A stretch of 39,702 nt of DNA from a bacterium (GTDB taxonomy: Bacteria > Zixibacteria > MSB-5A5 > GN15 > FEB-12): positions 1 through 39,702 of the forward strand of contig JBDRQG010000231.1 of NCBI GenBank assembly GCA_043826475.1. The letters are read 5' to 3'. Within the stretch, counting starts at the first letter, position 1; each line of letters opens with the position of its first letter. The notes beneath the pieces are model-generated. The model did no database searches, was not told where the DNA came from, and saw nothing but the letters and a program-made list of their open reading frames with translations. The position numbers and the translations under genes are program-made. This document shows positions 1-17,404 of the stretch, in pieces.

Positions 1-50
1 AACGCTTTTATCAACAAAACAAGATAGACAAAATTTATGATCAGAGTTAT

Positions 51-99
51 ATCAAATATCAAATTTCAAGTTTCAAATATCAAATATTAAATTTCAAAG
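51..99. repeat. Tandem ~7-bp array, consensus (A/T)TCAAAT, about seven units, directly upstream of the first gene
   Basis: Read directly: ATCAAAT ATCAAAT TTCAAG TTTCAAAT ATCAAAT ATTAAAT TTCAAAG. The array ends 7 nt before the ATG at 107. Confidence 0.6.
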
Positions 100-106
100 G
101 AATTCT

Positions 107-514
107 ATGTTCAAACCAAAAATAGTCGCATTTTTCTGTAAGTGGTGTACATCTGCAGGCGCTGACCTTGCAGGGACGTCAAGAATTACTTATAAACCAA
201 ATATCGTCGGTATCAGAGTTATGTGTTCGAGTCGAGTTGACCCTGAACATATTTTAAATGCCTTTAAAAATGGAGCCGATGGTGTCCTGATCGGAGGATG
301 CCACCCCGGTGATTGCCATTACCAGAGTGGTAATTATAAAACTCTAAAAAGGATTACTCTTTTAAAAAAGATGATAAATGACCTTGGTATTGATAAAAAC
401 CGCCTGAGATTAGAATGGATATCCGCAGCGGAAGGTAAGAGATTCACCCAGGTCATAGATGGGTTCACCGATGAAATCCAAAAATTAGGGAAATTGAAAA
501 TAGAACAACTGTGA
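107..514 (+). CDS. mvhD: MvhD/FlpD-type hydrogenase delta subunit (2Fe-2S electron-transfer protein)
   Basis: 135 aa with the family pattern CKWC...MCSSR...GGCHPGDCHYQSGNYK...LEWISA. Clustered with mvhG/mvhA-like genes. Confidence 0.85.
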   Translation: MFKPKIVAFFCKWCTSAGADLAGTSRITYKPNIVGIRVMCSSRVDPEHILNAFKNGADGVLIGGCHPGDCHYQSGNYKTLKRITLLKKMINDLGIDKNRLRLEWISAAEGKRFTQVIDGFTDEIQKLGKLKIEQL

Positions 515-969
515 AAAATATTATACTGGGTATCGGCAACAATATTCTTACCGATGACGGAATCGGGATTTACATTGTGAATCAATTGAAAAGCGATTTC
601 GTAAACGTAGAAATGATAACTACATCAAATTCCGGTTTTGGATTAGTTGACCAGATTGTGGATTACGACAGAGCCATTTTTATTGATTCAATATTAACCG
701 GAAGAAATGAGATCGGAGATGTTAACGTTTATTTTACAAAGGATTTTTCAAATCATATTCCATTCAGTATTCATTCCACAGATTTGATTTCTGCTCTTAA
801 GATTTCTAAAATATACGGGATGAATGTTCCCAAAGAAATCTATCTACTTGCGATTGAAATAAAGGACAATTTTACATTCAATGAAGGTTTTTCTGATGAA
901 ATCGAAGGGATGAAGGAAAGTATCTATAATAATGTAAAGGTAAGTGTTTGTGATATTTTAAAATGTTAG
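511..969 (+). CDS. [NiFe]-hydrogenase maturation endopeptidase (HybD/HycI/FrhD family)
   Basis: 152 aa. GTG start overlaps the mvhD stop (GTGA). N-terminal GIGNNILTDDGIGIY, and FIDS Asp and SIHS His at the expected metal-ligand positions. Confidence 0.85.
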   Translation: MKNIILGIGNNILTDDGIGIYIVNQLKSDFVNVEMITTSNSGFGLVDQIVDYDRAIFIDSILTGRNEIGDVNVYFTKDFSNHIPFSIHSTDLISALKISKIYGMNVPKEIYLLAIEIKDNFTFNEGFSDEIEGMKESIYNNVKVSVCDILKC

Positions 970-1076
970 ATTTAACCTTAATCTTCATCGAGCAAGAATT
1001 ATTGAAAAATGAAAAAAATAAATAATCATAAGGTAATGATTTTAATAAATTATAAGATTATTAGGAGGCCTAAATA

Positions 1077-1763
1077 ATGACAGATGATCGGATGATGGTA
1101 AGAGTTCAAATCATGGGTGAGTCTTATGAGGTACCGGAAGGCTCGACAATTATTATGGCGATGGAATACGCCGGTTACCAATTAAAAAGAGGAATAGGCT
1201 GTCGTGAAGGATTTTGTGGAGCATGTGCTACCCTTTATCGGGAAAAGAATGATTACAAAATCAAAGGTGGATTAGCCTGCCAAACGGTTGTTACCGATGG
1301 AATGGTGATCGCTCAGATTCCTTTTGTACCGGCAGAGAAACCGGTGTACGATATAAATGAATTAACGCCAGATATAAATACAATAAAGGCGATTTTCCCG
1401 ACTGTATTCCGCTGCGTTGCCTGTAATACTTGCACAAAAGCGTGTCCGCAAGATATAGAAGTAATGGATTATATACAGGCTTTAAAACGAGGCAATATTG
1501 AGCGAGCCGCTGATCTATCATTTGATTGTATTCGTTGTGGCTTATGCGCATTGAGATGCCCTGCTGAGATTGTGCAATATAACGCTGCCATTCTTGCACA
1601 AAGATTGTATGGGAAGTATCTTTCCAAGAAAAATCCCCAGTTGGATAAGCGGGTTAAAGAAATTGAAGATGGAAAATATACTGAGGAAATAAATGAATTG
1701 ATGGACATGGACCGGGAAAAGTTGACAAAAACATACTATAACAGAGAAATAAAAATATCCTAA
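1077..1763 (+). CDS. SdhB/FrdB-like iron-sulfur subunit (2Fe-2S plus two 4Fe-4S motifs)
   Basis: 228 aa. CREGFCGAC..C (Cx4Cx2C..C), then CVACNTCTKACP and CIRCGLCALRCP. AGGAGG RBS upstream. Immediately precedes the flavoprotein gene. Confidence 0.75.
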   Translation: MTDDRMMVRVQIMGESYEVPEGSTIIMAMEYAGYQLKRGIGCREGFCGACATLYREKNDYKIKGGLACQTVVTDGMVIAQIPFVPAEKPVYDINELTPDINTIKAIFPTVFRCVACNTCTKACPQDIEVMDYIQALKRGNIERAADLSFDCIRCGLCALRCPAEIVQYNAAILAQRLYGKYLSKKNPQLDKRVKEIEDGKYTEEINELMDMDREKLTKTYYNREIKIS

Positions 1764-1799
1764 GGAATTAAAATGAAGATAAAGAAATAAGGAGCAAAA

Positions 1800-3473
1800 A
1801 TGTATCCAGATTATATGTTAGAGTCCATTAAAAAAGTCGAAGAGACAAGACCTGGGCGTTTAGAAAAGTCAAAGAAATACGGTAAAGAAGTTTTTCCACA
1901 CATGACTGATAAGGAAAGGGGAAAAATTCTATCGAAATTTCATCCCGATTATAAAGAAGGAGCCCGTAAGGAAGTTCGTGTAGGTCCTAATAAAGGCGAA
2001 ATATTGACAACCGAAATTTCGGACCTTTTAGAATCCTATTCACGAATTAACCCGAAAGATTTTAATCTCGATGTAATAGATTATGAAACTGATGTTTTGG
2101 TGATTGGTGCTGGTTCAGCGGGGATGGCGTCGGCACTTGTTGCTGCGAAAAATGGAAGCAACGTTCTAATCGTTACTAAATTGAGACTCGGTGATTCAAA
2201 TTCTATGATGGCGGAAGGCGGAATTCAAGCGGCAGACCAACGCGATGATTCACCTACTATGCACTACCTTGATGTTATAGGGGGCGGTCATTTCGATAAT
2301 AAACCTGAATTAGTTCTTGCCCTTGTTTCAGATGGGCCTGAATCGATAAAATGGTTGGAAGAATTAGGAGTTATTTTCGATAAAAATCCCGATGGATCGA
2401 TGTTAGTGAAATCGGGCGGAGGAACTTCCCGGAACCGTATGCATTCCTGTCGAGATTATACCGGAGCCGGTATCTGTAGAGTGCTGCGTGATGAAGTTTA
2501 TAATTTACCTGATAAAATAAAATATATCGAATATTCTCCGGTTGTCGAACTTATTCTTGACGATAATGGTCAAGCTGTTGGAGCTGTCATCTATCACCTT
2601 GAGACGAAACAGTACTCAACTATTAAAGCAAAATCGATCATAATGTCAACCGGTGGATTTGGAAGGTTACATATTAGAGGTTTTGAAACGACGAATCATT
2701 ATGGTGCAACGGCAGATGGGATTATTCTTGGCTACCGGGTAGGTGCTAAATTATTATTTATGGATTCTGTTCAATATCATCCGACCGGGGCAGTGTATCC
2801 CGAGCAGATAGTCGGTTTCTTATGCACGGAAAAAATCAGAGCTCTCGGCGCTCAACCTGTAAATGCCGATGGGGAATTGTTTGTTTATGCTATGGAACCG
2901 CGAGATGTTGAAGCCTCTGCTTTTATTCGTGAATGTTTAGAGCGGAAAAATGGAATTACAACTCCATCCGGATTGTGCGGAATTTGGCTTGATTCCCCGC
3001 TTATCGATCAGATTGACGGACAGGGAACGATTGATAAGAATCTTCCGGGAATGGTCAGGCAGTTCGGTCGTTTTGACATTGACATCCGAAAATATCCGAT
3101 GCTTGTCTATCCAACATTACATTATCAGAATGGCGGAATTGAGATAAATGATAGATGTGAAACGAATATCCCGGGACTCTATGTAGCGGGTGAAACTTCC
3201 GGTGGAGTTCATGGAAGAAATAGACTGATGGGAAATTCTCAGTTAGACCTGATAGTATTCGGGAGGCGCGCAGGTTTGAATGCATCAAAGCGTGCAAACA
3301 AGGGAGTGAAAATAGGAAAACTTTCTTTACAGCATATCTACGATTATGAAAAGGAAGTTGCCGATTTAGATATTAACAGAAAGAAAATCGCTCCGATATT
3401 GCTCCCCGATTATATTCCCGAGCATGTAAAACAAAAACAGATAACTGCTGAATATTTTGGGACTTTAATATAA
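1800..3473 (+). CDS. FAD flavoprotein of the succinate dehydrogenase / fumarate reductase / L-aspartate oxidase family, with an N-terminal extension
   Basis: 557 aa. DVLVIGAGSAGMASA dinucleotide fold starts near residue 98. MAEGGIQAA, VQYHPTG and GLYVAGETSGGVHGRNRLMGNS motifs are typical of FrdA/SdhA. GGAG RBS upstream. Confidence 0.8.
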   Translation: MYPDYMLESIKKVEETRPGRLEKSKKYGKEVFPHMTDKERGKILSKFHPDYKEGARKEVRVGPNKGEILTTEISDLLESYSRINPKDFNLDVIDYETDVLVIGAGSAGMASALVAAKNGSNVLIVTKLRLGDSNSMMAEGGIQAADQRDDSPTMHYLDVIGGGHFDNKPELVLALVSDGPESIKWLEELGVIFDKNPDGSMLVKSGGGTSRNRMHSCRDYTGAGICRVLRDEVYNLPDKIKYIEYSPVVELILDDNGQAVGAVIYHLETKQYSTIKAKSIIMSTGGFGRLHIRGFETTNHYGATADGIILGYRVGAKLLFMDSVQYHPTGAVYPEQIVGFLCTEKIRALGAQPVNADGELFVYAMEPRDVEASAFIRECLERKNGITTPSGLCGIWLDSPLIDQIDGQGTIDKNLPGMVRQFGRFDIDIRKYPMLVYPTLHYQNGGIEINDRCETNIPGLYVAGETSGGVHGRNRLMGNSQLDLIVFGRRAGLNASKRANKGVKIGKLSLQHIYDYEKEVADLDINRKKIAPILLPDYIPEHVKQKQITAEYFGTLI

Positions 3474-3484
3474 AAGGAGGTTAT

Positions 3485-4465
3485 ATGGCAAAACCAAAAG
3501 TAGCGTTCTATTGGTGTGCATCTTGTGGTGGATGCGAGGAAGCAGTAGTTGACCTTGCAGAAGATATCCTAACTGTAACTGATGCAGTTGATATTGTTTT
3601 ATGGCCTGTTGCTCTTGATTTTAAAAAGAAAGATGTCGAGGCAATGCAAGATAATGAAATTGCAGTATCTTTCATCAATGGTGCAATCAGGACAAGTGAA
3701 CAGGAAGAAATGGTAAATCTTTTGAGGAAAAAGTCAGGATTAGTTGTCGCTTTCGGTTCGTGCGCCCATATAGGCGGAATACCGGGGCTGGCAAATTTCT
3801 CGAACAGAGAGGAAATTTTCGATTATGTTTATACGAAAACTCCTTCGACAATGAATCCGGCGAAGACGACTCCTCAAACGAATACAGTAGTTGACGGTTA
3901 TGAACTTGAGATACCTGAATTTTACAATACTGTAAAAACTTTAGACCAAACTATCGCTGTTGATTATTACCTTCCCGGCTGCGCACCACCGCCCGATCTG
4001 ATTATGAATGCTGTGATGGCAATTCTAAAGGGTGAACTTCCGGAAAAAGGCGCTGTGCTTGCTCCGGATAAATCATTATGTGACACTTGCCCGAGAAATG
4101 ATTCGAAGCCGGAGAAATTGATGATGAGCGAAATTAAACGACCTCATACAGTAGAAATGGATCCGGAAAAATGTTTTCTTGTAGAAGGGGTAATTTGTCT
4201 CGGTCCTGCTACACGTTCAGGTTGTGGTGAACGCTGTATCAATGCGAATATGCCTTGCAGAGGCTGTTTTGGACCGGTAAAAGGTGTTTCAGATTTCGGC
4301 GCAAAATCACTCTCGGCGATTGCATCGATAATGGGCATTGAAGGCGAGGAAAAGATGACCGATGAAGATATTCAGAAATTGGTTGATCAGATTCCTGATC
4401 CGGCGGGTCTTTTCTATATGTATAGCTTGCCTTCATCGTTATTGAGAAGGAAAGTGATGACATAA
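3485..4465 (+). CDS. mvhG: Cytoplasmic [NiFe]-hydrogenase small subunit, MvhG-like
   Basis: 326 aa. N-terminal FYWCASCGGCEE, FGSCAHIGGIPG, YLPGCAPPP, and a C-terminal Cys-rich region (CDTCPR, CLGPATRSGCGERC, CRGCFGP) for medial and distal clusters. AGGAGG RBS. Confidence 0.85.
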   Translation: MAKPKVAFYWCASCGGCEEAVVDLAEDILTVTDAVDIVLWPVALDFKKKDVEAMQDNEIAVSFINGAIRTSEQEEMVNLLRKKSGLVVAFGSCAHIGGIPGLANFSNREEIFDYVYTKTPSTMNPAKTTPQTNTVVDGYELEIPEFYNTVKTLDQTIAVDYYLPGCAPPPDLIMNAVMAILKGELPEKGAVLAPDKSLCDTCPRNDSKPEKLMMSEIKRPHTVEMDPEKCFLVEGVICLGPATRSGCGERCINANMPCRGCFGPVKGVSDFGAKSLSAIASIMGIEGEEKMTDEDIQKLVDQIPDPAGLFYMYSLPSSLLRRKVMT

Positions 4466-4727
4466 ATCCATGGGAATGATTGAATGGATAAATGAATGGA
4501 AAGTAAATTTGTACGATTTATTGCAAAGAATAGAAATCAAATTGAGAAAATTAAAAGTAATGAGCAATGGGGTTCAGGTTATTGAAATAAAGAAATAATT
4601 GCAGAATACGGAAAAAAGAATCATGATTAGTATCCCATTCAAACATTCAACTTAAAAAAATGTAGATATACTATATGAAAATATCTGCTACTGCTAATAA
4701 AACTTTAGTCAAGAAGAGGAGGCAAAA

Positions 4728-6191
4728 TTGACAAAAAGAATAACAATTGACCCGATTACAAGACTTGAGGGTCACGGAAAAATTGAAATATTTCTTAATG
4801 ACGAAGGTAATGTGGAAAGAGCCTTCCTTCAAGTTCCCGAATTGCGAGGATTTGAAAAATTTTCTATAGGACGTATGGCAGAAGAAATGCCGAGAATTAC
4901 ACCCAAAATCTGTGGTGTTTGTCCGACTGCTCACCACATGGCTTCAGGAAAAGCGTTGGATGATCTTTTCAACGTTGAACCGCCCCCGGCAGCTAAAAAA
5001 ATCAGAGAATTGATCAATTCAGCTTTTATGGCGGAAGACCATACGCTTCATTTCTTCTTTCTTGGAGGACCAGATTTTATTGTCGGTCCAACTGCCGAAG
5101 CAGGAGCAAGGAACATTCTGGGCGTTATCCAGAAAGTTGGACTTGAAGCAGGTAAGAAAGTTATCGATATCAGAAAAAAATTAAGGGGAATTATTACAAA
5201 ACAGGGCGGTCGAGTTATTCATCCTGTTTGTAATCTTCCCGGCGGTGTTTCTAAAGGTGTTACCAAAGAAGATAGAGATGAATACATTCAAATTGGAAAG
5301 GAGGCCATTGAATTTTCAAAGTTCACTCTTTCGGCATTTAAAGACATCGTACTCAAGAATAAAGATTATGTCGATTTAATTGTTGGTGATATTTACAAAC
5401 ACAGCACCTATTATATGGGACTTGTTGATGAGAATAACAAGGTGAATTTTTATGACGGCGAAGTGCGAGTGGTTGACCCGGAAGGTAATGAGTTTGTAAA
5501 ATTTAAACCTGATGAATATTTAAAGCATATCGAAGAACATGTCGAACCGTGGAGTTATATTAAATTTCCATACCTGAAGAATGTTGGCTGGAAAGGATTC
5601 GTCGATGGGAAAAATAGCGGTATCTATCGCGTAGCGCCTCTGGCAAGATTGAACGCATCTGACGGAATGGCAACACCATTAGCCCAGACCGAATACGAGC
5701 AGCTGTATGAAACTCTTGGCGGAAAACCTGCACACAACACCCTGGCATATCACTGGGCAAGGCTCATTGAACTTCTTTATGCTTCCGAAAGACTACTGGA
5801 ACTTGCAGGGGATAAAGAGATACTTGACCCGAATATCAGGACAATTCCTACATCATTACCTGATGAAGGTATCGGCATAGTCGAAGCGCCGAGAGGCACG
5901 CTTTTTCATCATTATAAATCCGATAAAAATGGAATTCTGACTGATGTAAATTTAATCGTTGCGACACTAAATAACTCCGCAGCTATGTGCATGTCTATCG
6001 AAAAAGCAGCCAAAGGAGTTATTAAAAATGGTAAAGTATCCGACGGATTACTGAACATGGTGGAAATGGCATTCAGAGCTTATGATCCTTGCCTTGCTTG
6101 TGCAACTCATTCACTTCCCGGGCAAATGCCGTTAGAGGTAAAAATCCGCGATATAAAAACTGGTGAAGTAATAAAAACTTTAAGAAGTTAA
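4728..6191 (+). CDS. mvhA: Cytoplasmic [NiFe]-hydrogenase large subunit, MvhA-like (group 3)
   Basis: 487 aa. TTG start 6 nt after GAGGAGG. RLEGHG, ICGVCPTAHH (L1) and DPCLACATH (L2) Ni-Fe ligand motifs, followed by a 26-aa C-terminal tail. Confidence 0.9.
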   Translation: MTKRITIDPITRLEGHGKIEIFLNDEGNVERAFLQVPELRGFEKFSIGRMAEEMPRITPKICGVCPTAHHMASGKALDDLFNVEPPPAAKKIRELINSAFMAEDHTLHFFFLGGPDFIVGPTAEAGARNILGVIQKVGLEAGKKVIDIRKKLRGIITKQGGRVIHPVCNLPGGVSKGVTKEDRDEYIQIGKEAIEFSKFTLSAFKDIVLKNKDYVDLIVGDIYKHSTYYMGLVDENNKVNFYDGEVRVVDPEGNEFVKFKPDEYLKHIEEHVEPWSYIKFPYLKNVGWKGFVDGKNSGIYRVAPLARLNASDGMATPLAQTEYEQLYETLGGKPAHNTLAYHWARLIELLYASERLLELAGDKEILDPNIRTIPTSLPDEGIGIVEAPRGTLFHHYKSDKNGILTDVNLIVATLNNSAAMCMSIEKAAKGVIKNGKVSDGLLNMVEMAFRAYDPCLACATHSLPGQMPLEVKIRDIKTGEVIKTLRS

Positions 6192-6272
6192 TGTTTATTA
6201 CCTATTCCTTTTATAATTTTGTTGTGAGTTATTTCTATATTTTATGTAATTATAAAATATTAAGGAGGAAAA

Positions 6273-7700
6273 ATGGAATTGGACCTTGAAAAATTAATAA
6301 AGATAGTAGGGAAGGAAAATGTAAGGTCTGACCCCGCCGATCTTATTGTATATGGTTCGGATTCATCGGTTCACGAGGCGCCGGCATCAGCTGTTGTAAG
6401 ACCTGAAAATGTCGAACATGTTCAGGAAATTGTTCGTTATGCAAATTCAAATAAAATACCAATAATACCCAGAGGTGCGGGTTCAGGAATGTCCGGTCAG
6501 GCGGTCCCGATAAATGGCGGAATTGTATTGGATATGAAAAAGATGAATCATGTTCTTGAAATCAATCTCGCAGATGTTTATTGCAGAGTCGAACCAGGTG
6601 TCGTGGATGATGATTTAAATCGTGTTTTACTGCCTTATGGTGTATTTTATCCTCCCACTCCTGCGTCAAGTAGAGTGGCTACGATTGGCGGTGAAATTGC
6701 TAATAATGCAAGTGGTGTGAGGTCGGTCAAATATGGAGCCGTGCGGGATTATGTACTTGGGATGAAGGTCGTGATGGCAAATGGTGATCTGGCTTCATTT
6801 GGATGCAGAACAAGGGTTGAAGCCTCGGGTTATCAGCTCGATCGACTAATGGTCGGTTCTGAGGGGACTCTTGGTATCATTGTTGAAGCAACATTAAGAT
6901 TTGCACCTATTCCAAAATTTAGATGTATGGGTACTGCAAACTATAACAAGCTTGAGGAGGCCGGCGATACAATTGCTGAAATTATGGCGAGCGGTTGTCA
7001 GCCCTCTTTATTAGAATTGATGGATAATGTTGCGATAACAGCGGTGAATAAAGCGCTGAATTTAGGGCTTCCTGATGTAGAAGCTATTTTAATGTTCGAA
7101 GCTGATGGAATGGTTAAAGAAGCGGTTGATTTTGAAGTGGAAAAAATAAAAGCAGTTTGTGAAAAACACAATGGCTTTGGAATCGAATTAAGTTATGATG
7201 CAAAGGAACGTACCCGTATTTTTTCAGGAAGGAAAAAATTATTTCCGGCATTGTCAAAATATCAAGAGCTTCTCGCATGCACCTCTCTGGCCGATGACAT
7301 GGCTGTTCCTTATTCGAAAATGGCAGAAACCGCCCGGAAGATTCATGAAATCGCTAAAAGGAATAATGTTATTATGACTGCTTATGGACATTGTGGCTCC
7401 GGTTGTATGCATACAAAAATATTAATGGATCCTACAAAAAAATCACAGTGGGAAGATGCGAGAAATGCTGTTGCCGAAACCTACGATTATGTTCGTTCTG
7501 TCGGTGGAACAACCTCTGCTGAACACGGCATTGGATTATCAAAAGCACCTGCTTTTAAAATAGAGAAACATGATTCACTTAATATCATGCGTGCTGTGAA
7601 AAAGGCTCTCGATCCCAATAATATTTTGAATCCAGGTAAATTAATGGATGCTCCCGATGATTGGGTAACTGCGACAAGACTCAGATATAAACATAATTAA
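6273..7700 (+). CDS. FAD-linked oxidase of the GlcD / D-lactate dehydrogenase family
   Basis: 475 aa. PRGAGSGMSGQAVP FAD-binding (PCMH-type) motif, C-terminal SAEHGIGLSK and LDPNNILNPGK typical of GlcD/D-LDH. AGGAGG RBS. Confidence 0.8.
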   Translation: MELDLEKLIKIVGKENVRSDPADLIVYGSDSSVHEAPASAVVRPENVEHVQEIVRYANSNKIPIIPRGAGSGMSGQAVPINGGIVLDMKKMNHVLEINLADVYCRVEPGVVDDDLNRVLLPYGVFYPPTPASSRVATIGGEIANNASGVRSVKYGAVRDYVLGMKVVMANGDLASFGCRTRVEASGYQLDRLMVGSEGTLGIIVEATLRFAPIPKFRCMGTANYNKLEEAGDTIAEIMASGCQPSLLELMDNVAITAVNKALNLGLPDVEAILMFEADGMVKEAVDFEVEKIKAVCEKHNGFGIELSYDAKERTRIFSGRKKLFPALSKYQELLACTSLADDMAVPYSKMAETARKIHEIAKRNNVIMTAYGHCGSGCMHTKILMDPTKKSQWEDARNAVAETYDYVRSVGGTTSAEHGIGLSKAPAFKIEKHDSLNIMRAVKKALDPNNILNPGKLMDAPDDWVTATRLRYKHN

Positions 7701-7717
7701 TTGGTAGGAAGAAAATA

Positions 7718-8275
7718 ATGGAATTGAATAATTTGAAAAAATGGCAGGATAAACTGCATGTTTGTATTCGATGTGGTTATTGCTTCGAGCATTGCCACCT
7801 TTTCAAGATTACAGGCTGGGAATCTGATTCTCCCCGTGGTAAACTTATTATGCTTCATGGGTTACTTCAGGGTGATATAAAGCCTTCGGATTACCTCGCT
7901 GAAAAGATGTTTGAATGTTATATGTGTAAACGATGCGAGGCTTCCTGTTCTGCCAAAGTCGAAGTCACCGAAGTGTTCATGGATGCAAGAGTAGATTTTG
8001 CTGAAGCGGGTTATGATGTTGTAGGCACAACTTCAGGAACGAATGACGATTTGTGCTGTCGATGTCAAGTATGTATTACAGTTTGTAAACACGAGGCGAG
8101 ATCACTGGACAAAGAAAATAAAAAAATAGTTATCGACAAAGTTAAATGTCAGAGTTGCGGCGGTTGTGTTGCCGCATGTCCTTCTGGAGCTGCGTATAGT
8201 CAAGAAGGTTTTAGACTTACTCCGAACGAGTTACGTGAACAAGTTGTAAATTATCTTGCAGGAGGTGTCGAATGA
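7718..8275 (+). CDS. Poly-ferredoxin Fe-S protein: GlcF/HdrD-type N-terminal half without CCG domains, plus a 2x[4Fe-4S] ferredoxin half
   Basis: 185 aa. CIRCGYCFEHC...DSPRGK...CYMCKRCEASC, then CCRCQVCITVC and CQSCGGCVAACP. Confidence 0.7.
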   Translation: MELNNLKKWQDKLHVCIRCGYCFEHCHLFKITGWESDSPRGKLIMLHGLLQGDIKPSDYLAEKMFECYMCKRCEASCSAKVEVTEVFMDARVDFAEAGYDVVGTTSGTNDDLCCRCQVCITVCKHEARSLDKENKKIVIDKVKCQSCGGCVAACPSGAAYSQEGFRLTPNELREQVVNYLAGGVE

Positions 8276-8670
8276 ATCCGAAAACAATTATTTTCTCATG
8301 TAATTGGTCATCATATCCGGGACTGCAACTTTCTGAAAATACGCTCGAATCAGTTCCGGAAGACTACAAATTAATAATTAATATGTGCTCCGGCAGAATA
8401 TCACCGGAATTGATAATAGATGCGTTCAAAAATGGAGCCTGGGGAGTGATGATTGCGAGTTGTCCTACGGACAAATGCGAACACGATGGAAATTACAAAA
8501 CACGAAGAAGAGTATTGCTTTTAAAAAAGACTTTAGAACAATTTGGCATTGATGCGAATAGAATAATATTGGAGTGGATTGATAAAGATGAGTCTGCTAA
8601 ATTAAAAAAGGCAATTGATCAATTTGTTACTGAAATCAATAAATTGGGTCCCATTAATTTTTACGATTAG
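8272..8670 (+). CDS. mvhD: Second MvhD-like protein (variant Cys pattern)
   Basis: 132 aa. ATGA overlap with the upstream Fe-S gene. Aligns along its length with the 107-514 product (MCSGR, ASCPTDKCEHDGNYK, LEWID), but has CNWS instead of CKWC. Confidence 0.8.
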   Translation: MNPKTIIFSCNWSSYPGLQLSENTLESVPEDYKLIINMCSGRISPELIIDAFKNGAWGVMIASCPTDKCEHDGNYKTRRRVLLLKKTLEQFGIDANRIILEWIDKDESAKLKKAIDQFVTEINKLGPINFYD

Positions 8671-8866
8671 AAGAAGTGCGATCCCGGTAAAACTTGCTTT
8701 GCAATGCCGTTTGCTGTGCTTGTCGGAAAAGAAGGATTTATTGACCAATATATTAAATGAGGAAAATTAGGAATTTAGCTGCTTTTTAATTATTGGACCG
8801 TTTATTTCTGTAATTATTTAAATGTAAAGTTTAATAAGCAAAGCATTTAATTCCTTACATTTTTAT

Positions 8867-10798
8867 ATGCTTACAAAAATCAAACTCCGGTTAAAGTTAA
8901 TTCTGAGTTTTTTATCGGTTATTATTATCGTTGGTGTTACATCTACTTTAGTAGGTGTGCATTTGATTGCCGATAGAATAGTGAAACAAGCTCAGGAGAA
9001 GGTTGAATTAGACCTCAATTCAGCAAGAGAAGTATACAATGATAAAATCAGAGATGTTAGTACTTCTATACGTTTGACTGCTCCTCGGTTCTTTTTAAAA
9101 GATGCTGTCTTAAGGAATGACATAGCGAGATTGAAAAAAGAGTTAAGAAGGATAAGAGAAAGGGAATCATTAGATATACTTAATCTAACTGATAAAGATG
9201 GAAAAGTCATTGTTAGAGCTAGAAATCCTGTAATTTATGGAGATGATCAATCAGATGATGAACTTGTTATAGAAGCAATTAGTAAAAAAGAAGTGGTAGC
9301 CTCAACACTAATCATCCCAAGGGATGAATTATTGAAAGAGGGAGAGGATCTGGCCAAGCAAGCATACATAAAGCTTATCCAAACTCCCAAAGCCAAGCCG
9401 ATATCAGGGAGTGAAGAAACCTCAGGAATGATGATAATAGCAGCAGCCCCAATTTTGGATTACCATGGAAACCTAATCGGTATCTTATATGGGGGGAACC
9501 TGCTTAATAGAAATTATGAGATTGTTGATAAAATAAAAGATATAGTTTATAGAGGAGAAACGTATAAGGGAAAAGACATTGGCACTGCTACAATATTTCA
9601 GGGTGATTTACGCATTTCAACCAATGTAGAGAGAAAGGATGGGACAAGAGCTATAGGTACGCGAGTATCCGAAGAAGTGAACAACCAAGTTTTAGTAAAG
9701 GGTATGCCATGGTTTGACAGGGCATTTGTCGTTAATAATTGGTATATAACGGCGTACGAACCGATAAGAAACATCAAAGATGAAGTAATTGGCATTTTGT
9801 ATGTTGGAATACTTGAAGAGAAGTTCGTAGATATGAAAAGACAAACTATGTTGACATTTTTGGGTATAACATTTGCCGGAATTGTCATCGCTTTTGCTAT
9901 TTCGTGTCTTCTTGGAAATAGTATAACAAAGCCAATTCGGTTACTTGTTTCTGCTTCTAATAAATTTGCAAAAGGAGACCTGGACCATAGAGTTGAATAT
10001 AGGAATAAAGATGAGATTGGAGAATTGGAAACAGCATTTAATTATATGTTAGATTCAATAAAGGAGAGAGATGAGAGATTAAAGGAATATACTAAGCAGG
10101 AAATAATGAAGTCTGAAAGATTAGCTATGGTGGGGCAATTAGCCGCAGGTGTTGCCCATGAAATCAATAACCCTCTTGGAAGCATTTTGATATATAGTCA
10201 TCTTTTGTTAGAGGATTTGGAAAAAGAAGATCCCAGGAGAGAAAATCTTGAGAAAATAGTAAATCAAGCCACGCGTTGTAAGAAGATTGTAAAAGGATTA
10301 CTGGATTTTTCTCATCAAACTGAACCTGAGATAAAACCCTCTGATATAAATACGATAGTTACAGAGGTTTTAGCTCTTGTTGAAAGACAGGAAATGTTTC
10401 ATAATATAAAAGTAATAAAAAAATTATTACCAGACCTGCCTACTATTTTGCTTGATAAGAATCAGATACAGCAGGTACTTATGAATATTATTCTTAATGC
10501 TGCTGAGGCTATGGATGGACAGGGTAAGTTGACAGTTGAAACTTCCTCTGATGAAGAATATGCAAGAATAAAATTTACTGATACAGGATGTGGAATTTCA
10601 GAAGAGAATATGAAAAAGCTATTTCAACCATTTTTTAGTACTAAAGAGACAGGTCATGGAACAGGGCTCGGGCTATCAATAAGCTATGGAATTATCAGAA
10701 AGCATAATGGAAAGATAAATGTAAGCAGCGAAATTGGAGAGGGAAGCACTTTCACTATAGTTTTACCCATAAGAGAGAAGAACGACCCCAAAACATGA
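8867..10798 (+). CDS. Sensor histidine kinase: TM, extracytoplasmic Cache-like domain, TM, HAMP, HisKA, HATPase
   Basis: 643 aa. Hydrophobic segments near residues 10-35 and 327-350. H-box AAGVAHEINNPLG, N-box NIILNAAEAM, G-boxes DTGCGI and GTGLGLSIS. Confidence 0.85.
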   Translation: MLTKIKLRLKLILSFLSVIIIVGVTSTLVGVHLIADRIVKQAQEKVELDLNSAREVYNDKIRDVSTSIRLTAPRFFLKDAVLRNDIARLKKELRRIRERESLDILNLTDKDGKVIVRARNPVIYGDDQSDDELVIEAISKKEVVASTLIIPRDELLKEGEDLAKQAYIKLIQTPKAKPISGSEETSGMMIIAAAPILDYHGNLIGILYGGNLLNRNYEIVDKIKDIVYRGETYKGKDIGTATIFQGDLRISTNVERKDGTRAIGTRVSEEVNNQVLVKGMPWFDRAFVVNNWYITAYEPIRNIKDEVIGILYVGILEEKFVDMKRQTMLTFLGITFAGIVIAFAISCLLGNSITKPIRLLVSASNKFAKGDLDHRVEYRNKDEIGELETAFNYMLDSIKERDERLKEYTKQEIMKSERLAMVGQLAAGVAHEINNPLGSILIYSHLLLEDLEKEDPRRENLEKIVNQATRCKKIVKGLLDFSHQTEPEIKPSDINTIVTEVLALVERQEMFHNIKVIKKLLPDLPTILLDKNQIQQVLMNIILNAAEAMDGQGKLTVETSSDEEYARIKFTDTGCGISEENMKKLFQPFFSTKETGHGTGLGLSISYGIIRKHNGKINVSSEIGEGSTFTIVLPIREKNDPKT

Positions 10799-12126
10799 AA
10801 ATATTAGTTATTGATGATGAAGAATATACACGTGATTCCTGCCGCCAGATACTCTCAGGAAATAGATATCGTGTGACAGAAGCTAAGGATGGGTACGAAG
10901 GGCTTGATCTAATAAAAAAGGAATCTTTCGACACTGTAATCCTTGATTTGAAGATGCCTGGTCTGAGTGGAATGGATGTATTAAAGAGGATAAAAGAGAA
11001 TAATCCAGAAACTATCGTGATCGTTATTACGGGCTATGCTTCGATCGATTCGGCAGTGGCAGCTATGAAAAGCGGTGCCTATGATTTCCTTCCCAAACCA
11101 TTCACTCCAGACGAGCTTCGTGTGGTTGTCAAACGAGCATTAGAAAAAAGAAAATTGTTGATGGATAACTTATATCTACGACAGGAACTTAAGTCAAGTA
11201 CTGAATTAGATATGATTATTGGTCACAGTAAAGCTATACGCAAAATTCATGATCTGGTGCGGAAAGTAGGACCAACCGGTAGCACAGTTTTAATCAGCGG
11301 CGAGAGCGGTACAGGAAAAGAATTAGTATCCAGAGCCATACACAAACACAGTGCTCGCAGTAACAAGCCGTTTGTCACTGTCGATTGTAGTACTCTGGTC
11401 GAAAACCTTTTTGAGAGCGAGCTCTTTGGTCATGTGAAAGGTTCCTTTACCGGAGCAAATGCTACAAAGCATGGCCGCTTAGAACTGGCAAATGGCGGTA
11501 CGGTTTTCCTTGATGAAATCAGCAATATCGGTATCAGTTTACAAGCAAAACTACTACGATCTATCCAAGAAAGGGAGATCACCAAAGTCGGTAGTACTCA
11601 GGCTATCAAAATTGATGTCAGAATTATTGCTGCTACAAATAAAAATCTCCAGAAAGAAGTCAAAGAAGGGACATTCCGAGAGGATCTTTTCTATCGGTTG
11701 AGTGTAGTACCTATCCATTTACCCCCTTTGCGTGAACGAAAAGATGACATTCCTTTGTTATCTAATTACTTTATGAACAAATACAACAAAAAGAGAAGGA
11801 AATCCATTAAAGGCATTTCCGAACGTGCAATGAAGGCTCTCGTCAATTACGATTGGCCGGGAAACGTACGAGAACTGGAGAATGCCATTGAAAGAGCCGT
11901 GGTACTAACGGAAAATGAATTCATAGAGCCTTCCGATCTTTACTACTACGGCTTAAGTGCGGAAATTGAAGCCATTAAAGATCGGACCCTCGTTGATGTC
12001 GAAAAACAACACATCGAAAAAACTCTGAAAATGTTTAGTGGTCACAAAATAAAAACATCTAAAGCGTTAGGGATAGACCGGAAGACGCTACGGGCAAAAA
12101 TGAAAAAATACGGTATAGGCTCTTAA
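10795..12126 (+). CDS. Sigma-54-dependent response regulator (NtrC family: REC, AAA+, Fis-type HTH)
   Basis: 443 aa. ATGA overlap with the kinase gene. REC with DLKMPG. Walker A GESGTGKE, ESELFGH, GSFTGA (GAFTGA-loop variant), C-terminal HTH ALGIDRKTLRAKMKKYGI. Confidence 0.9.
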   Translation: MKILVIDDEEYTRDSCRQILSGNRYRVTEAKDGYEGLDLIKKESFDTVILDLKMPGLSGMDVLKRIKENNPETIVIVITGYASIDSAVAAMKSGAYDFLPKPFTPDELRVVVKRALEKRKLLMDNLYLRQELKSSTELDMIIGHSKAIRKIHDLVRKVGPTGSTVLISGESGTGKELVSRAIHKHSARSNKPFVTVDCSTLVENLFESELFGHVKGSFTGANATKHGRLELANGGTVFLDEISNIGISLQAKLLRSIQEREITKVGSTQAIKIDVRIIAATNKNLQKEVKEGTFREDLFYRLSVVPIHLPPLRERKDDIPLLSNYFMNKYNKKRRKSIKGISERAMKALVNYDWPGNVRELENAIERAVVLTENEFIEPSDLYYYGLSAEIEAIKDRTLVDVEKQHIEKTLKMFSGHKIKTSKALGIDRKTLRAKMKKYGIGS

Positions 12127-12475
12127 CCTGAAAATTTCATTAGCCACTAAGTAACCAAGACACAAAATATTAATAAAATTGAAAATTAATGATAATATTT
12201 AAAACCAATAAATAGAAACTGAGTTATTAATAATAATTTCTCTTATATTAATATTTCTTCGTGACTTATCCCGTAATGGATTCCTGTCTTTGTGACAGAA
12301 AATTCTGGTTAACAATAAATAGTAAGATGGGGCATAACTCCCCATAGATGGGATAAAATCCCCCGTTTTCCATGCCATAAGCGAATAACAACGACCTGAA
12401 TATAAATTTATAATCTCACTTAAAATTAACCTTTTAGGCATTATCCTGAGTGGTTTTTTTATTTAGGCAAAATTA

Positions 12476-12491
12476 TGGCATAAAGTTTGTG
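12476..12491 (+). promoter_or_regulatory. Candidate sigma-54 (-24/-12) promoter, TGGCAT-N5-TTGT
   Basis: TGGCATAAAGTTTGTG matches TGGCAC-N5-TTGC in GG..G spacing but lacks the -12 C. It lies between the sigma-54 activator gene and the tandem-REC / FHL-like genes. Confidence 0.35.
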
Positions 12492-12506
12492 AAATCTAAA
12501 AAAGAG

Positions 12507-13295
12507 ATGATGGATAAAAGTAAAAAAATTCTTGTTATTGATCCCGATGCCGGAATAAGAGAGGAGTATCTCTCTCTTTTCAATGGTGAAGATTATGAGT
12601 TGGAAATAAGTGCAGGGTTCACCAAAGCTATGGAAAAAATTAAGAATGTTCATTTTGATTGCATCATTATAGATACTCATTTGCCTGAGATCTTGGTTTA
12701 TGATGCGGTTCCTATTATAAAGACGATTTACCCGGAAGTTGAAGTAATTGTAACCACTGCCCAAAACAGCAGAGAATTGGAAACCAAGGTGCGAGAACAG
12801 GACATTTTCTATTATTATATAAAATCATTTGAAATGGAAGAGCTAAGGTTAGCGGTTAGTGATATATTCAAAAAATTGGGGAAAATAAAGGAGGTAAAAA
12901 AGATGAAACAACCACCATTGATTCTAATTGTTGATAATGACCCGGATTTTGTGAAAGCAACACGAACTATCTTGAAGACAAAGTCATATAAAGTGGAAAT
13001 CGCATATGACAGAAATGAAGCCATGGAAAAGATCAAACATCTCAAACCCGATTTGATCCTTCTGGATATTATGATGAAGGAAATAGACGATGGATTTACT
13101 ATATGTTATGATCTTAAGCATGATCCTGAGTTAAAAAATATTCCTGTATTTGCTATCTCCGGCATAACTGAAAAGACTGGGTTTAAGTTCTCTCCAAAAA
13201 CCGATGGTGAATATTTTGCGGCAGACGACTATGTAGAAAAGCCTATTGAAGCTGATGATTTGCTGAAAAGGATTGAGGCACTTCTTACAAAATGA
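12507..13295 (+). CDS. Tandem-receiver (REC-REC) response regulator with no output domain
   Basis: The ORF track starts at GTG 12450. I prefer ATG 12507 (MMDKSKKILVID) because the receiver fold begins there. Two REC domains carry acceptor Asp contexts IIIDTHLP and LLDIMM. Confidence 0.8.
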   Translation: MMDKSKKILVIDPDAGIREEYLSLFNGEDYELEISAGFTKAMEKIKNVHFDCIIIDTHLPEILVYDAVPIIKTIYPEVEVIVTTAQNSRELETKVREQDIFYYYIKSFEMEELRLAVSDIFKKLGKIKEVKKMKQPPLILIVDNDPDFVKATRTILKTKSYKVEIAYDRNEAMEKIKHLKPDLILLDIMMKEIDDGFTICYDLKHDPELKNIPVFAISGITEKTGFKFSPKTDGEYFAADDYVEKPIEADDLLKRIEALLTK

Positions 13296-16580: not shown

Positions 16581-17404
16581 AAGATATTTATCTTCCAGAT
16601 ATAGCTGTAATTGATGACATGACCGAAGAAACTGGGGACGTTACAACTTTCACTCTACGATTTAAGGATAAAAGATTGCAAGAAGAATTCGATTATAGAC
16701 CAGGTCAATTTGTTGAAGTCTCTGTTTTCGGAGTTGGTGAGATACCAATTTCCATTACCTCAACCCCATCAAGATCAGGATTCTTAGAGCTCAGTATTAA
16801 AAATGCAGGCTTGGTATCGGGTGCCCTTCACAAGCTTTCTAAAGGAGCAGAGGTCGGCGTTAGAGGACCTTTTGGAAACGGGTTCCCTTATGAAAAAGCT
16901 TTTGGGAAAAATCTACTCTTTGTGGGTGGTGGGGTAGGATTAGCTCCACTACGATCTTTAATCAATTTTGCTCTTGATAACCGTGATAGATTTGCAGACT
17001 TTTCCATACTTTATGGTTCCCGTACACCTGCGGATTTGGTTTTCCGCAAAGAACTTGAGCTTTTGGGAAAGCGTCCTGATGTGCGGACCTTTATTACTGT
17101 GGATCGTGGAGATGACCAATGGCAGGGTAACGTGGGTGTAGTGACAACCTTGTTCCCCAAAGCAGACATAACCAGCGAAGACACCCTGGCCTTTGTCTGT
17201 GGTCCCCCAGTTATGATCCCCTTCGTAATCCACGGTTTAATAAAGATCGGCTTCTCAGATGAAACAATCATCTCCACTTTGGAGAGGCACATGAAATGCG
17301 GAGTAGGTAAATGCGGTCATTGCTGCATCGGACACAAGTATGTATGTCAGGATGGGCCTGTATTCTCTTATAAAGAGATGAAGGAGATGGTAGAGAAAGC
17401 ATAG
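16577..17404 (+). CDS. AsrB / sulfhydrogenase-gamma (HydG) / PyrK-like FAD- and NAD(P)-binding 2Fe-2S flavoprotein
   Basis: 275 aa. TTG start overlaps the upstream stop. PGQFVEVSV, GPFGNGF, LLFVGGGVGLAPLRS, CGPPVM, C-terminal CGVGKCGHCCIG..YVCQDGPVF. Confidence 0.8.
   Translation: MKDIYLPDIAVIDDMTEETGDVTTFTLRFKDKRLQEEFDYRPGQFVEVSVFGVGEIPISITSTPSRSGFLELSIKNAGLVSGALHKLSKGAEVGVRGPFGNGFPYEKAFGKNLLFVGGGVGLAPLRSLINFALDNRDRFADFSILYGSRTPADLVFRKELELLGKRPDVRTFITVDRGDDQWQGNVGVVTTLFPKADITSEDTLAFVCGPPVMIPFVIHGLIKIGFSDETIISTLERHMKCGVGKCGHCCIGHKYVCQDGPVFSYKEMKEMVEKA

Follow-up and report, generated by a model that had tools for sequence, protein, structure and literature searches.

Results

Gene content of the locus

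The window, i.e., the whole stretch of DNA analysed, is an entire contig of 39,702 bp whose first letter lies 106 bp before mvhD (contig start and spacer 5' of mvhD1, positions 1-106, plus strand, covered by the overlap with assembly L001 described below). Nine open reading frames, all on the plus strand, are tightly packed at 107-8670, exactly where an earlier note on this DNA had placed nine genes. Intergenic distances range from -4 to 107 bp, the exception being a spacer of 262 bp between mvhG and mvhA. All features given below are likewise on the plus strand.

The first gene (107-514) encodes the [2Fe-2S] adaptor MvhD1 (PF02662, E 1e-52), whose class is the one found next to HdrA, and is followed by that of a HycI/HybD-type [NiFe]-hydrogenase maturation endopeptidase (511-969; TIGR00072, E 8e-25; PF01750). 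The hydrogenase comprises MvhG, the small subunit of a group 3c-type [NiFe]-hydrogenase (3485-4465; VhuG, E 2.8e-57; PF01058), and the large subunit MvhA (4728-6191; VhuA, E 6e-124), which carries both Ni-Fe CxxC motifs, RICGVC and DPCLAC, and a C-terminal tail for processing by the protease; mvhA has a TTG start and a strong Shine-Dalgarno sequence. Within the spacer between the two genes (4466-4727), blastn found about 157 bp (4538-4694) to be without counterpart in the 96%-identical relatives, while an Rfam search gave no match, folding was unremarkable (z = -0.8) and a search for a terminator-like site found none.

Between the endopeptidase and hydrogenase genes lies an SdhAB-like pair. 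Its Fe-S subunit of 228 residues, FeS228 (1077-1763; Pfam Fer2 and Fer4_9; NCBIfam TfrB over positions 18-108), combines a 2Fe-2S domain with two [4Fe-4S] motifs (CxxCxxCxxxCP), its twelve cysteines falling in the expected motifs, and resembles SdhB or the N-terminal half of TfrB. In TfrB, an Fe-S domain is fused to a CCG domain of the HdrB type, whereas FeS228 corresponds to the Fe-S part only: neither profile matches (Pfam, NCBIfam) nor motif inspection revealed a CCG domain, and its score on the TfrB equivalog model was 42 bits for a cut-off of 385. The partner is a TfrA-like soluble flavoprotein of 557 residues (1800-3473; PF00890, E 1e-69), whose best NCBIfam match was TfrA (320 bits, below the cut-off of 718) and whose N-terminal extension of 95 residues is family-specific, being found only at the N-terminus of its own family. 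It retains the equivalents of E. coli FrdA H232, E245, R248, R287, H355 and R390, while the covalent-FAD histidine, His44 in that enzyme, is replaced by Asn134, as it is by Asn in all 94 family members checked. The FAD is thus predicted to be bound non-covalently. Variants of E. coli FrdA at His44 reportedly lose the covalent link and succinate oxidation and keep fumarate reduction, and the retention of the catalytic residues together with the loss of this histidine points to fumarate reduction as the likely direction.

The last three genes form a separate module. An FAD-linked D-2-hydroxyacid dehydrogenase of the GlcD/LctD/LDHD-like type (6273-7700; PF01565, PF02913) scored 398 bits against GlcD TIGR00387 (cut-off 568), its best solved relatives being glycolate oxidase, LctD and D-lactate dehydrogenase. 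It is followed by FeS185 (7718-8275), an Fe-S protein of 185 residues with four CxxCxxCxxxC ([4Fe-4S]) motifs and an N-terminal half resembling the GlcF N-terminus, which may act as the electron wire of this module, and by MvhD2 (8272-8670; PF02662, E 2.5e-37), an adaptor of a second class. MvhD2 shares 42% identity with MvhD1 but 75% and 62% with its counterparts in L094 and L095, where the module also lies inside the same cluster. In many genomes, more distant relatives of FeS185 are fused to an MvhD domain (about 315 residues), and MvhD2 shares the sequence signatures of that domain, with all four cysteines invariant, which indicates that it belongs to the GlcD/FeS185 module.

Further along the contig, a cache-domain histidine kinase and a sigma-54 response regulator (8867-12126; Pfam) directly follow MvhD2, as they also do in L089 and L094, and are candidate regulators. 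A LarA-family racemase (28779-30032) is closest to the malate racemase LarAH6 (389 bits, cut-off 500, vs. 303 bits for lactate racemase). A malic enzyme (37496-38950), 78% identical to that of L003, is the ortholog of the gene immediately following the flavoprotein gene in related clusters. Genes of a membrane-bound group-4 hydrogenase also occur further along this contig.

Hdr genes upstream of the window

The earlier note had seen no Hdr gene in view, which is literally true of the window; this absence is an artefact of the contig end, because the contig begins so shortly before mvhD. The independent assembly L001, from the same population and identical at 100% of nucleotides to window positions 1-3314, reaches 1,066 bp beyond the window start and shows there the last part of hdrA followed by a small PF05635 gene, the encoded HdrA fragment being 96.5% identical to residues 421-650 of the HdrA of L090. 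In this last relative (DNA 96% identical to the window, proteins 94-99% identical), the gene order is hdrC-hdrB-hdrA-IVP-mvhD-hycI-FeS228-flavoprotein-mvhGA-glcD. hdrC and hdrB are visible only in L090, the window's own DNA being without them. The HdrA of L090 scored 809 bits on the HdrA2 model; its HdrB has both CCG motifs intact and, as best NCBIfam match, the SdhE subunit of methylmenaquinol:fumarate reductase.

Positions 107-8670 thus make up two-thirds, on the downstream side, of a cluster about 12.5 kb long, ordered hdrC-hdrB-hdrA-(small PF05635 gene)-mvhD1-hycI-FeS228-flavoprotein-mvhG-mvhA-glcD-FeS185-mvhD2. The upstream hdrABC genes that the earlier note had suggested looking for do lie directly upstream, in L001 (hdrA) and L090. 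The note itself had named this arrangement as one that would refute its reading, and it is at odds with the view that the partners of MvhD here are the SdhAB-like and GlcD-like pairs rather than HdrA. MvhD1 shares 80% identity with the sole MvhD of L003 and 65% with one from archaeal Thermoplasmata (L055); it is orthologous to the MvhD that adjoins Hdr in clusters without any GlcD module. The idea that each pair has its own MvhD thus holds for MvhD2 and the GlcD module, but not for MvhD1 as an adaptor of the SdhAB-like pair.

Conservation among relatives

Across GTDB species genomes, the conserved family of the SdhAB-like pair counts at least 596 relatives; synteny was scored over the 80 best GTDB loci, which represent over 10 phyla of bacteria as well as four groups of archaea. 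The FeS228 gene lies directly upstream of the flavoprotein gene in 75 of the 80. At least one Hdr subunit is encoded within 10 kb in 63; no Hdr gene was found within that distance in the other 17, ten of which have short flanks. A single hdrB is present at 49 loci, two hdrCB pairs at four, and HdrB immediately upstream of FeS228 at 17. Other neighbours are a 2-oxoacid:ferredoxin oxidoreductase (26/80), a Flx-like NADH module (21/80), fumarase (18/80), malic enzyme (13/80), MvhA (10/80) and SucC (9/80). Since these genes are repeatedly found together in many phyla, the arrangement is not due to chance.

This context also bears on the identity of the flavoprotein. L-aspartate oxidase has the same catalytic residues, and NadB models scored 200-262 bits; every NadB cut-off was missed, however, and the TfrA and Sdh/Frd models scored higher. 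With a dedicated SdhB/TfrB-like Fe-S subunit adjoining it so consistently, and fumarase, SucCD and malic enzyme as recurrent neighbours, it is extremely improbable that the protein is some other FAD_binding_2 enzyme, such as L-aspartate oxidase, and that the hydrogenase lies next to it only incidentally. The fumarate-reductase-like assignment of the earlier note is in line with this (TfrA 320 vs. NadB 262 bits).

LarA-type racemases are the usual neighbours of the GlcD/Fe-S/MvhD module: they adjoin GlcD-FeS::MvhD in L097, L099 and L100, and GlcD in L098, which suggests that the distant LarA gene of the window is tied to its GlcD module. In L097, L099 and L100, this triad has no hdr gene within 8-10 kb, and its MvhD may therefore dock to another partner.

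Discussion

A possible electron-bifurcating system

We consider, with a probability of roughly one half, that the products of the cluster form a single soluble system for electron bifurcation, with HdrABC as its base. H2 would be oxidised by MvhAG, with electrons passing via MvhD1 to the HdrA flavin. In the window's lineage, HdrA probably has a further donor in the GlcD module, which would draw its electrons from an organic acid: the GlcD-like enzyme would oxidise a D-2-hydroxyacid, either D-lactate or D-malate, that a LarA-type racemase would provide, and electrons would flow through FeS185, then MvhD2, to the same kind of HdrA site. The substrate cues differ, the dehydrogenase being nearest to D-lactate/glycolate enzymes and the racemase to malate racemases. 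The electron pair would be split at HdrA: one electron would be driven uphill onto ferredoxin, and the other would pass downhill via HdrC, HdrB and FeS228 to the flavoprotein, whose non-covalently bound FAD would serve to reduce fumarate to succinate. Fe-S subunits of Sdh/Frd enzymes are known to pair directly with CCG proteins of the HdrB type. Possible users of the reduced ferredoxin would be 2-oxoacid synthases or the group-4 hydrogenase mentioned above. It should be noted that, on textbook potentials, lactate- or malate-driven bifurcation to ferredoxin and fumarate would be near thermoneutral or slightly uphill, which counts against this model.

The cytoplasmic, flavin-based coupling of H2 and a 2-hydroxyacid to fumarate reduction envisaged in the earlier note is thus plausible, but its Hdr-free form is very improbable. 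In that form, MvhAG-MvhD1 would feed the SdhAB-like pair directly and the GlcD module with MvhD2 would be a second Hdr-independent complex, the 2-hydroxyacid perhaps being bifurcated to fumarate and protons. This agrees with the gene order inside the window, with textbook-potential arithmetic that is correct, and with two loci: L024 (BRC1; MvhD-FeS228-flavoprotein-MvhGA), whose upstream flank is shorter than 1 kb, and L036 (FeS228-flavoprotein-MvhD), where Hdr genes are absent within 10 kb. Against it stand hdrCBA immediately upstream in the window's lineage, the frequency of Hdr near the relatives and the orthology of MvhD1 with Hdr-adjacent adaptors; to our knowledge, docking to HdrA is the only characterised role of MvhD. 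Moreover, bifurcation to protons would place the hydrogenase on the low-potential branch, unlike known Mvh-Hdr complexes, in which it supplies electrons to the bifurcating FAD, the acceptor at low potential being ferredoxin.

Reverse operation of the HdrABC-based system, in which succinate and reduced ferredoxin are oxidised and H2 is released (electron confurcation), would overcome the difficulty of oxidising succinate in the syntrophic degradation of propionate or amino acids. Cloacimonadota, Syntrophaceae and Syntrophobacteraceae are indeed among the relatives, genes for succinyl-CoA synthetase, fumarase and malic enzyme often lie close by, and Mvh-type hydrogenases are reversible in principle. 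Such a direction is nevertheless improbable, given the absence of the covalent-FAD histidine across the flavoprotein family and a mean potential of about -210 to -235 mV (from +30 mV and about -450 to -500 mV), at which H2 could form only if its pressure were about 0.1 Pa or lower.

Comparison with known systems

A rather unlikely alternative is that MvhADG-HdrABC works separately, H2 reducing a disulfide and ferredoxin, while FeS228/flavoprotein and a CCG protein re-oxidise the thiols and reduce fumarate, in a manner similar to TfrAB of Methanothermobacter, which uses CoM-SH and CoB-SH. The top family match of the flavoprotein to TfrA, that of FeS228 to the N-terminal part of TfrB, the intact disulfide site of HdrB and the loci with two hdrCB pairs are consistent with it. 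By contrast, FeS228 lacks a CCG domain and most loci have a single hdrB, so that one site must both make and consume the thiol, and both equivalog cut-offs, TfrA and TfrB, were missed. Nor are these bacteria expected to make CoM or CoB. This separate operation is the model of PMC8542988 and one of two options in PMC11636981.

In the HdrABC-based system that we prefer, if electrons reach FeS228 and the flavoprotein via HdrC and HdrB, then fumarate (+30 mV) would take the role that CoM-S-S-CoB plays as acceptor in methanogens, either directly or via a thiol/disulfide couple handled by HdrB. The combination of Hdr, Mvh or Flx and a thiol:fumarate reductase has been described for Cloacimonadota and tubeworm symbionts, the link having been reached independently in two genome papers (PMC8542988, section 9; PMC11636981). 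The Hdr/hydrogenase/soluble fumarate-reductase cluster is therefore of an already described kind, and the part that is likely new is the module of GlcD-like enzyme, Fe-S protein and MvhD2, which is apparently undescribed.

Gene content of the hydrogenase cluster

The nine genes that the earlier note had read from the sequence alone correspond exactly to the open reading frames, all on the + strand, and each assignment was backed by Pfam and NCBIfam. They encode MvhD (MvhD1, 107-514; PF02662, E = 1e-52), a HycI-type maturation protease (511-969), an Fe-S protein of 228 aa (FeS228, 1077-1763) with a 2Fe-2S domain and two CxxCxxCxxxCP motifs, an FAD_binding_2 flavoprotein of 557 aa (1800-3473), MvhG (3485-4465; VhuG, E = 2.8e-57), MvhA (4728-6191; VhuA, E = 6e-124), a GlcD-like FAD oxidase (6273-7700), an Fe-S protein of 185 aa (FeS185, 7718-8275) with four CxxCxxCxxxC ([4FeS]-type) motifs and an N-terminal half resembling the N-terminus of GlcF, and a second MvhD (MvhD2, 8272-8670). 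The window holds a group 3c (Mvh-type) [NiFe]-hydrogenase: a large subunit with its Ni-Fe ligands (CxxC pairs C62/C65 and C455/C458) and a C-terminal tail for the protease, a small subunit, and MvhD, whose four conserved cysteines are retained in both copies. The NCBIfam equivalog cut-offs for Mvh subunits, of which the window proteins fall short, are tuned to methanogens.

Intergenic gaps range from -4 to 107 bp, except between mvhG and mvhA (262 bp). Scanning of positions 1-9000 revealed no terminator-like hairpin in any intergenic spacer, promoter and terminator counts close to the shuffled expectation, and no Rfam match. ORF and Pfam annotation of the cluster revealed no membrane anchor genes. 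About 157 bp of the mvhG-mvhA spacer (4538-4694) are missing from two 96%-identical relatives, L090 and L091; this spacer occurs only once in the window, lacks an Rfam match and folds unremarkably (z = -0.8). In L095, a Marinimicrobia-like contig, the mvhG-mvhA junction contains an inserted nucleotidyltransferase gene.

Directly 3' of mvhD2, positions 8867-13295 encode a Cache-domain histidine kinase, a sigma-54 activator and a double-receiver protein, an arrangement also present in L089 and in L094, another Marinimicrobia-like contig. A search for sigma-54 sites (TGGCAC-N5-TTGC, at most two mismatches) gave 34 matches against 23 expected, none of them in the intergenic regions of the cluster, and it therefore lends no support to control by the adjacent sigma-54 regulator.

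Hdr genes upstream of the window

The earlier note had seen no Hdr and had proposed that MvhD works without it. This is correct within the window, but in the lineage the absence proved to be an effect of the contig end: the window is an entire contig, and it opens just 106 bp ahead of mvhD1. The Logan assembly contig L001, which matches window positions 1-3314 at 100% nucleotide identity, extends 1,066 bp further upstream, where it encodes a small PF05635 protein and the final 230 residues of HdrA. It shares 96.5% identity with the stretch from residue 421 to 650 of HdrA in L090, a locus from a Marinimicrobia MAG (GCA_016783665.1) with about 96% DNA identity and 94-99% protein identity to the window, in which the gene order is TPR protein-hdrC-hdrB-hdrA-PF05635 gene-mvhD-hycI-FeS228-flavoprotein-mvhG-mvhA-glcD. 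The hallmarks of HdrA (809 bits on the HdrA2 model), HdrB (two CCG motifs, at positions 41-43 and 193-195) and HdrC (8 Cys) are all present in L090, the window itself starting downstream of them. The hdrA 3' end in L001 and hdrCBA in L090 show a genomic association of Mvh with HdrABC. With hdr genes found immediately upstream, an outcome that the earlier note had itself named as refuting, an Hdr-free role of MvhD was refuted and the Hdr-independent reading of the cluster was rejected.

Small PF05635 genes ("23S rRNA-intervening sequence protein") occur at shifting intergenic positions in such hdr/mvh/fumarate-reductase clusters (L001, 743-1093; L003, a related locus, 7538-7834 and 9571-9957; L094, 3242-3598 and 6637-6993; L090, 3518-3868), one of them just upstream of the window start, and resemble small ORFs of a mobile or opportunistic kind. 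A TPR protein of about 225-231 aa (window 36704-37375; L003, 967-1662; L090, 1-120) adjoins malic enzyme in the window, while in relatives a similar protein is encoded directly upstream of hdrC or mvhG.

Conservation of the flavoprotein neighbourhood

Cluster representatives that match the flavoprotein over its full length at 70% identity or better number more than 120, and at least 596 relatives were found in a pattern scan that took one genome for each GTDB species. Synteny was counted and compared in the best 80 of these at least 596 loci with the aid of our own blastp seeds. Among these best loci, bacterial ones belong to Marinimicrobia, Cloacimonadota, Aminicenantes, BRC1, WOR-3, Gallionellaceae and other Nitrosomonadales, Bacillota, Anaerolineae, Dehalococcoidia and Thermodesulfobacteriota, and archaeal ones to Theionarchaea, Thermoplasmata, Methanofastidiosum and Thermococci.

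The FeS228 gene lies directly 5' of the flavoprotein gene in 75 of the 80 best loci, and 63 of them carry at least one Hdr subunit within 10 kb, 10 of the 17 exceptions having short flanks. MvhA was found in 10/80, and Flx-like genes, in the three-gene FlxCBA pattern (two Fe-S proteins and one FAD/NAD-binding protein), stand in for MvhAG in 21/80. The same best loci hold genes for 2-oxoacid:ferredoxin oxidoreductase (26/80), fumarase (18/80), malic enzyme (13/80) and succinyl-CoA synthetase (9/80), and hdrB is immediately 5' of the FeS228 gene in 17/80. Two related loci illustrate these arrangements: POR-hdrA-mvhD-mvhGA-hycI-hdrCB-FeS228-flavoprotein-malic enzyme in L007, and fumarase-mvhGA-hdrCBA-mvhD-hycI-FeS228-flavoprotein-malic enzyme in L003. 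Association with Hdr genes is a conserved feature of the SdhAB-like module.

Identity of the flavoprotein and its Fe-S partner

The fumarate-reductase-type assignment made in the earlier note was upheld. Family scores placed methanogen TfrA first (320 bits), ahead of Sdh/Frd (273) and NadB (262), all under their cut-offs; on the TfrA equivalog NF004900 (cut-off 718) the match covered model positions 6-407 of 546. Residues H327, E344, R347, R368, H441 and R475 correspond to H232, E245, R248, R287, H355 and R390 of E. coli FrdA, and these catalytic positions do not vary in the family alignment. Where FrdA has His44, the attachment site of covalent FAD, the flavoprotein has Asn134, with Asn in 94/94 family members checked. 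In work on E. coli FrdA, FAD without the covalent link supported fumarate reduction but not succinate oxidation, and this substitution thus argues for the reductive direction.

L-aspartate oxidase was also considered. The 262 bits obtained on TIGR00551 fall below the cut-off of 453, and this reading can for practical purposes be excluded, judging from the family scores, the FrdA-type residues, the dedicated Fe-S subunit that adjoins the flavoprotein in most of the best loci, and the nearby genes for fumarase, SucCD and malic enzyme.

The fumarate-reductase-type flavoprotein carries a family-specific N-terminal extension of 95 aa; a search with it found 321 representatives, in all of which it is N-terminal, and matched only N-termini of the same family, giving no functional clue. 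The AlphaFold2 model of the flavoprotein, built from a 12-sequence alignment, was too poor for use (mean pLDDT 53.5). FeS228 matches only positions 18-108 of TfrB and is without a CCG domain, the CCG protein being a separate HdrB.

The GlcD-FeS185-MvhD2 module

No GlcD homolog was found near the flavoprotein in the best 80 GTDB loci. GlcD-FeS185-MvhD2 was found inside the same cluster in L094, which has an additional HdrD-like CCG protein, and in L095, where the order is flavoprotein-glcD-FeS-mvhD2-mvhG-mvhA-hycI-sucCD-fumAB. Homologs of FeS185 at 57% identity or less are mostly fused to an MvhD domain (about 315 aa). Three unrelated genomes (L097, L099 and L100) encode GlcD-FeS::MvhD next to a LarA homolog, and a WOR-3 contig (L098) encodes hdrCB-hdrA::mvhD-mvhGA-gcvH-like-LarA-GlcD-HdrD-like.

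MvhD2 is only 42% identical to MvhD1, as compared with 75 and 62% to the MvhD2 of L094 and L095, and shares with the fused MvhD domain the signatures CNWS.YPG and CP.DKCEH-DGN. For MvhD1, identity is 80% with the sole MvhD of L003 and 65% with an archaeal MvhD. By these identities and common signatures, the MvhD proteins fall into two classes, MvhD1 going with Hdr and Mvh and MvhD2 with the dehydrogenase.

The GlcD-like protein is nearest to a glycolate oxidase, LctD and mitochondrial D-lactate dehydrogenase, LctD being its second-best solved relative (244 bits), and it scores 398 bits on the GlcD equivalog TIGR00387 (cut-off 568). As for the hallmarks of GlcDEF, no GlcE was found, and FeS185 matches only positions 19-93 of GlcF, without the CCG domain. 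No Etf genes were present among the ORFs scanned on the contig. In the papers covered, our literature search found no description of a GlcD-FeS-MvhD module with an MvhD paralog of its own, and this donor module is apparently an undescribed addition to the published Hdr-Mvh-TFR cluster.

The LarA homolog of the window (28779-30032) scored 389 bits as a LarAH6 malate racemase (cut-off 500) and 303 bits as a lactate racemase (cut-off 460). The five linked LarA homologs, this one included, all scored best on LarAH6 (373-399 bits, under the cut-off of 500), with 292-309 bits for lactate racemase. Malate racemases are characterised enzymes (PMC7583248). Next to the LarA gene of the window, on its 3' side, comes a PEPCK-like gene of atypical sequence (30102-31829), whose PF01293 match is only weak.

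In L100 (10246-11853), a DUF5981 gene and a gene for methylenetetrahydrofolate reductase come after the GlcD-FeS::MvhD-LarA triad. Acetogens have MetF-type reductase genes with a link to Hdr/MvhD, and this MetF neighbour is a hint that acceptors of other kinds may be served by the MvhD plug.

Remainder of the contig

Positions 13372-22954 encode an Fdh-like molybdopterin oxidoreductase, a Fer4_22 protein, an FAD/NAD-binding protein (sharing 30-46% identity with the Flx-like ones at other loci), a polyferredoxin and a group-4 membrane hydrogenase. This region may be a formate- or ferredoxin-oxidising energy-converting module and could consume the reduced ferredoxin. Further downstream, malic enzyme occurs as a fusion with a response-regulator receiver domain (25218-26963; 581 aa), and the acetate kinase gene comes next; L094 (19201-20952) has kept both the fusion and this neighbour.

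As possible suppliers to, or users of, the scheme proposed below, the contig encodes not only the Fdh-like enzyme and the group-4 membrane hydrogenase but also malic enzymes, acetate kinase, PEPCK, citrate synthase, aconitase and isocitrate dehydrogenase; no ATP-citrate lyase was seen on it. Such gene content fits a fermentative, branched-TCA lifestyle better than autotrophy.

Proposed mechanism and significance

We tentatively propose that HdrABC is a hub for two donors and a fumarate reductase. HdrABC would be the bifurcating core, and MvhAG-MvhD1, with H2, and a racemase-fed GlcD-FeS185-MvhD2, with a D-2-hydroxyacid that may be D-malate, would be alternative donors to the HdrA flavin. Ferredoxin would be the low-potential acceptor and fumarate the high-potential one, reached from HdrC and HdrB through FeS228 and the flavoprotein. 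For a CCG protein to touch an SdhB-type Fe-S protein directly is not without precedent: the two are fused in TfrB, and HdrB of L090 has as its best NCBIfam match SdhE of methylmenaquinol:fumarate reductase (151 bits). A free thiol could instead shuttle between HdrB and fumarate reduction; this seems unnecessary, since most loci (49 of the best 80) have a single hdrB.

Calculated by us from textbook potentials, the reaction with H2 as donor is strongly exergonic (about -70 kJ per fumarate), while lactate- or malate-driven bifurcation to ferredoxin and fumarate is about thermoneutral, which makes the organic-acid donor the weaker part of the model. The theme of the earlier note, namely flavin-based coupling of H2 or 2-hydroxyacids to fumarate, is retained, but its Hdr-free version fell with the hdr genes found upstream.

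A bolder version, with a probability of about 0.3, would have the fumarate reductase joined to HdrB without any thiol intermediate, and D-malate as the possible substrate of the GlcD module. If real, this hub would perform a quinone-free and membrane-free "fumarate respiration" in which energy is stored as reduced ferredoxin, and dismutation of malate or lactate by one complex would become possible. To our knowledge, no soluble Hdr-linked fumarate reductase has been purified so far, while the family is present in at least 596 species genomes of anaerobes. Were fumarate the high-potential acceptor of an Hdr bifurcation, uncultured groups such as Marinimicrobia, Cloacimonadota and Aminicenantes could gain energy by reducing it without quinones, and the role of bacterial Hdr-Mvh complexes in organisms without CoM and CoB would be accounted for. 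The GlcD-FeS-MvhD module would add organic acids to the donors that plug into HdrA via MvhD, and would offer a physiological setting for the large and poorly understood LarA-type malate racemase group.

Comparison with known systems

The core of the cluster has already been published as a genome inference. Section 9 of Williams et al. (2021; PMC8542988) describes in "Ca. Celaenobacter" (Cloacimonadota) a cluster with thiol:fumarate reductase, OGOR, fumarate hydratase, succinyl-CoA synthetase, a group 3c Mvh hydrogenase and Hdr, whose functional link is presented as inferred. In a Riftia symbiont, Hdr-Flx, tfrAB and korABCD form a single co-expressed cluster according to the corresponding passages of a 2024 paper (PMC11636981), which cite a model where bifurcation supplies thiol:fumarate reductase and OGOR. 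Our Gallionellaceae loci reproduce the layout described there, with kor genes between hdrB and hdrA, and our Cloacimonadota loci likewise match the description in PMC8542988. As far as these descriptions go, the Hdr, Mvh/Flx, TfrA-like, fumarase and succinyl-CoA synthetase families are the same, as is the inference that bifurcation supplies fumarate reduction and ferredoxin-dependent steps; both assign the cluster to a reverse TCA cycle in autotrophic metabolism, whereas the present contig encodes citrate synthase and no ATP-citrate lyase was seen on it. The passages of the two papers that deal with the cluster do not mention a GlcD-FeS-MvhD2 module or a second MvhD. A 2025 survey of Cloacimonadota noted MvhADG-HdrABC without linking it to the flavoprotein pair, and our literature search found no biochemical study of an Hdr-Mvh-TFR cluster.

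The flavoprotein shares the catalytic His/Arg set of complex II SdhA/FrdA, but the covalent-FAD histidine and the membrane anchors are missing here. Type E succinate:quinone reductases and methylmenaquinol:fumarate reductase likewise combine an SdhAB-type pair with a CCG protein (the HdrB-like SdhE); they are membrane- or quinone-linked, whereas this cluster encodes no membrane anchor. TfrAB of Methanothermobacter (Heim et al., 1998, as cited in PMC8542988) is comparable as a soluble, quinone-independent flavoprotein and Fe-S subunit linked to HdrB-type chemistry, and TfrA is the best NCBIfam match. TfrB, however, is one protein with an SdhB-like half and an HdrB-like CCG half, in place of which we find FeS228 and a separate HdrB, and the flavoprotein differs from TfrA in its 95-aa extension, its C-terminus and the missed equivalog cut-offs.

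Swappable donor modules entering HdrA via an MvhD-type subunit have precedents in FlxABCD-HdrABC of Desulfovibrio and Fdh-MvhD-Hdr of methanogens; the extra donor proposed here consists of a GlcD-type FAD dehydrogenase, a four-cluster ferredoxin and an MvhD paralog that belongs to them. A GlcD/LctD-type dehydrogenase feeding a bifurcating or Hdr-type system is known from the archaeal HdrD/GlcD proposals (lactate:heterodisulfide), which L094 and L098 resemble in having an HdrD-like CCG protein beside GlcD, and from LctBCD of Acetobacterium woodii (PDB 7qh2). The GlcD of the window, by contrast, is accompanied by FeS185 and MvhD2 instead of a CCG partner or EtfAB.

A further parallel is MvhADG-HdrABC of methanogens without cytochromes. 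Its six subunit types all occur in this lineage (MvhA, MvhG and MvhD in the window, HdrCBA upstream), and the Ni-Fe motifs, the four MvhD cysteines and the two HdrB CCG motifs are likewise conserved. The present system differs in its bacterial, Marinimicrobia-like host, in the absence of methanogenesis and of the polyferredoxin MvhB, and in the fumarate-reductase pair and GlcD module embedded in it, and its high-potential acceptor is probably fumarate rather than CoM-S-S-CoB.
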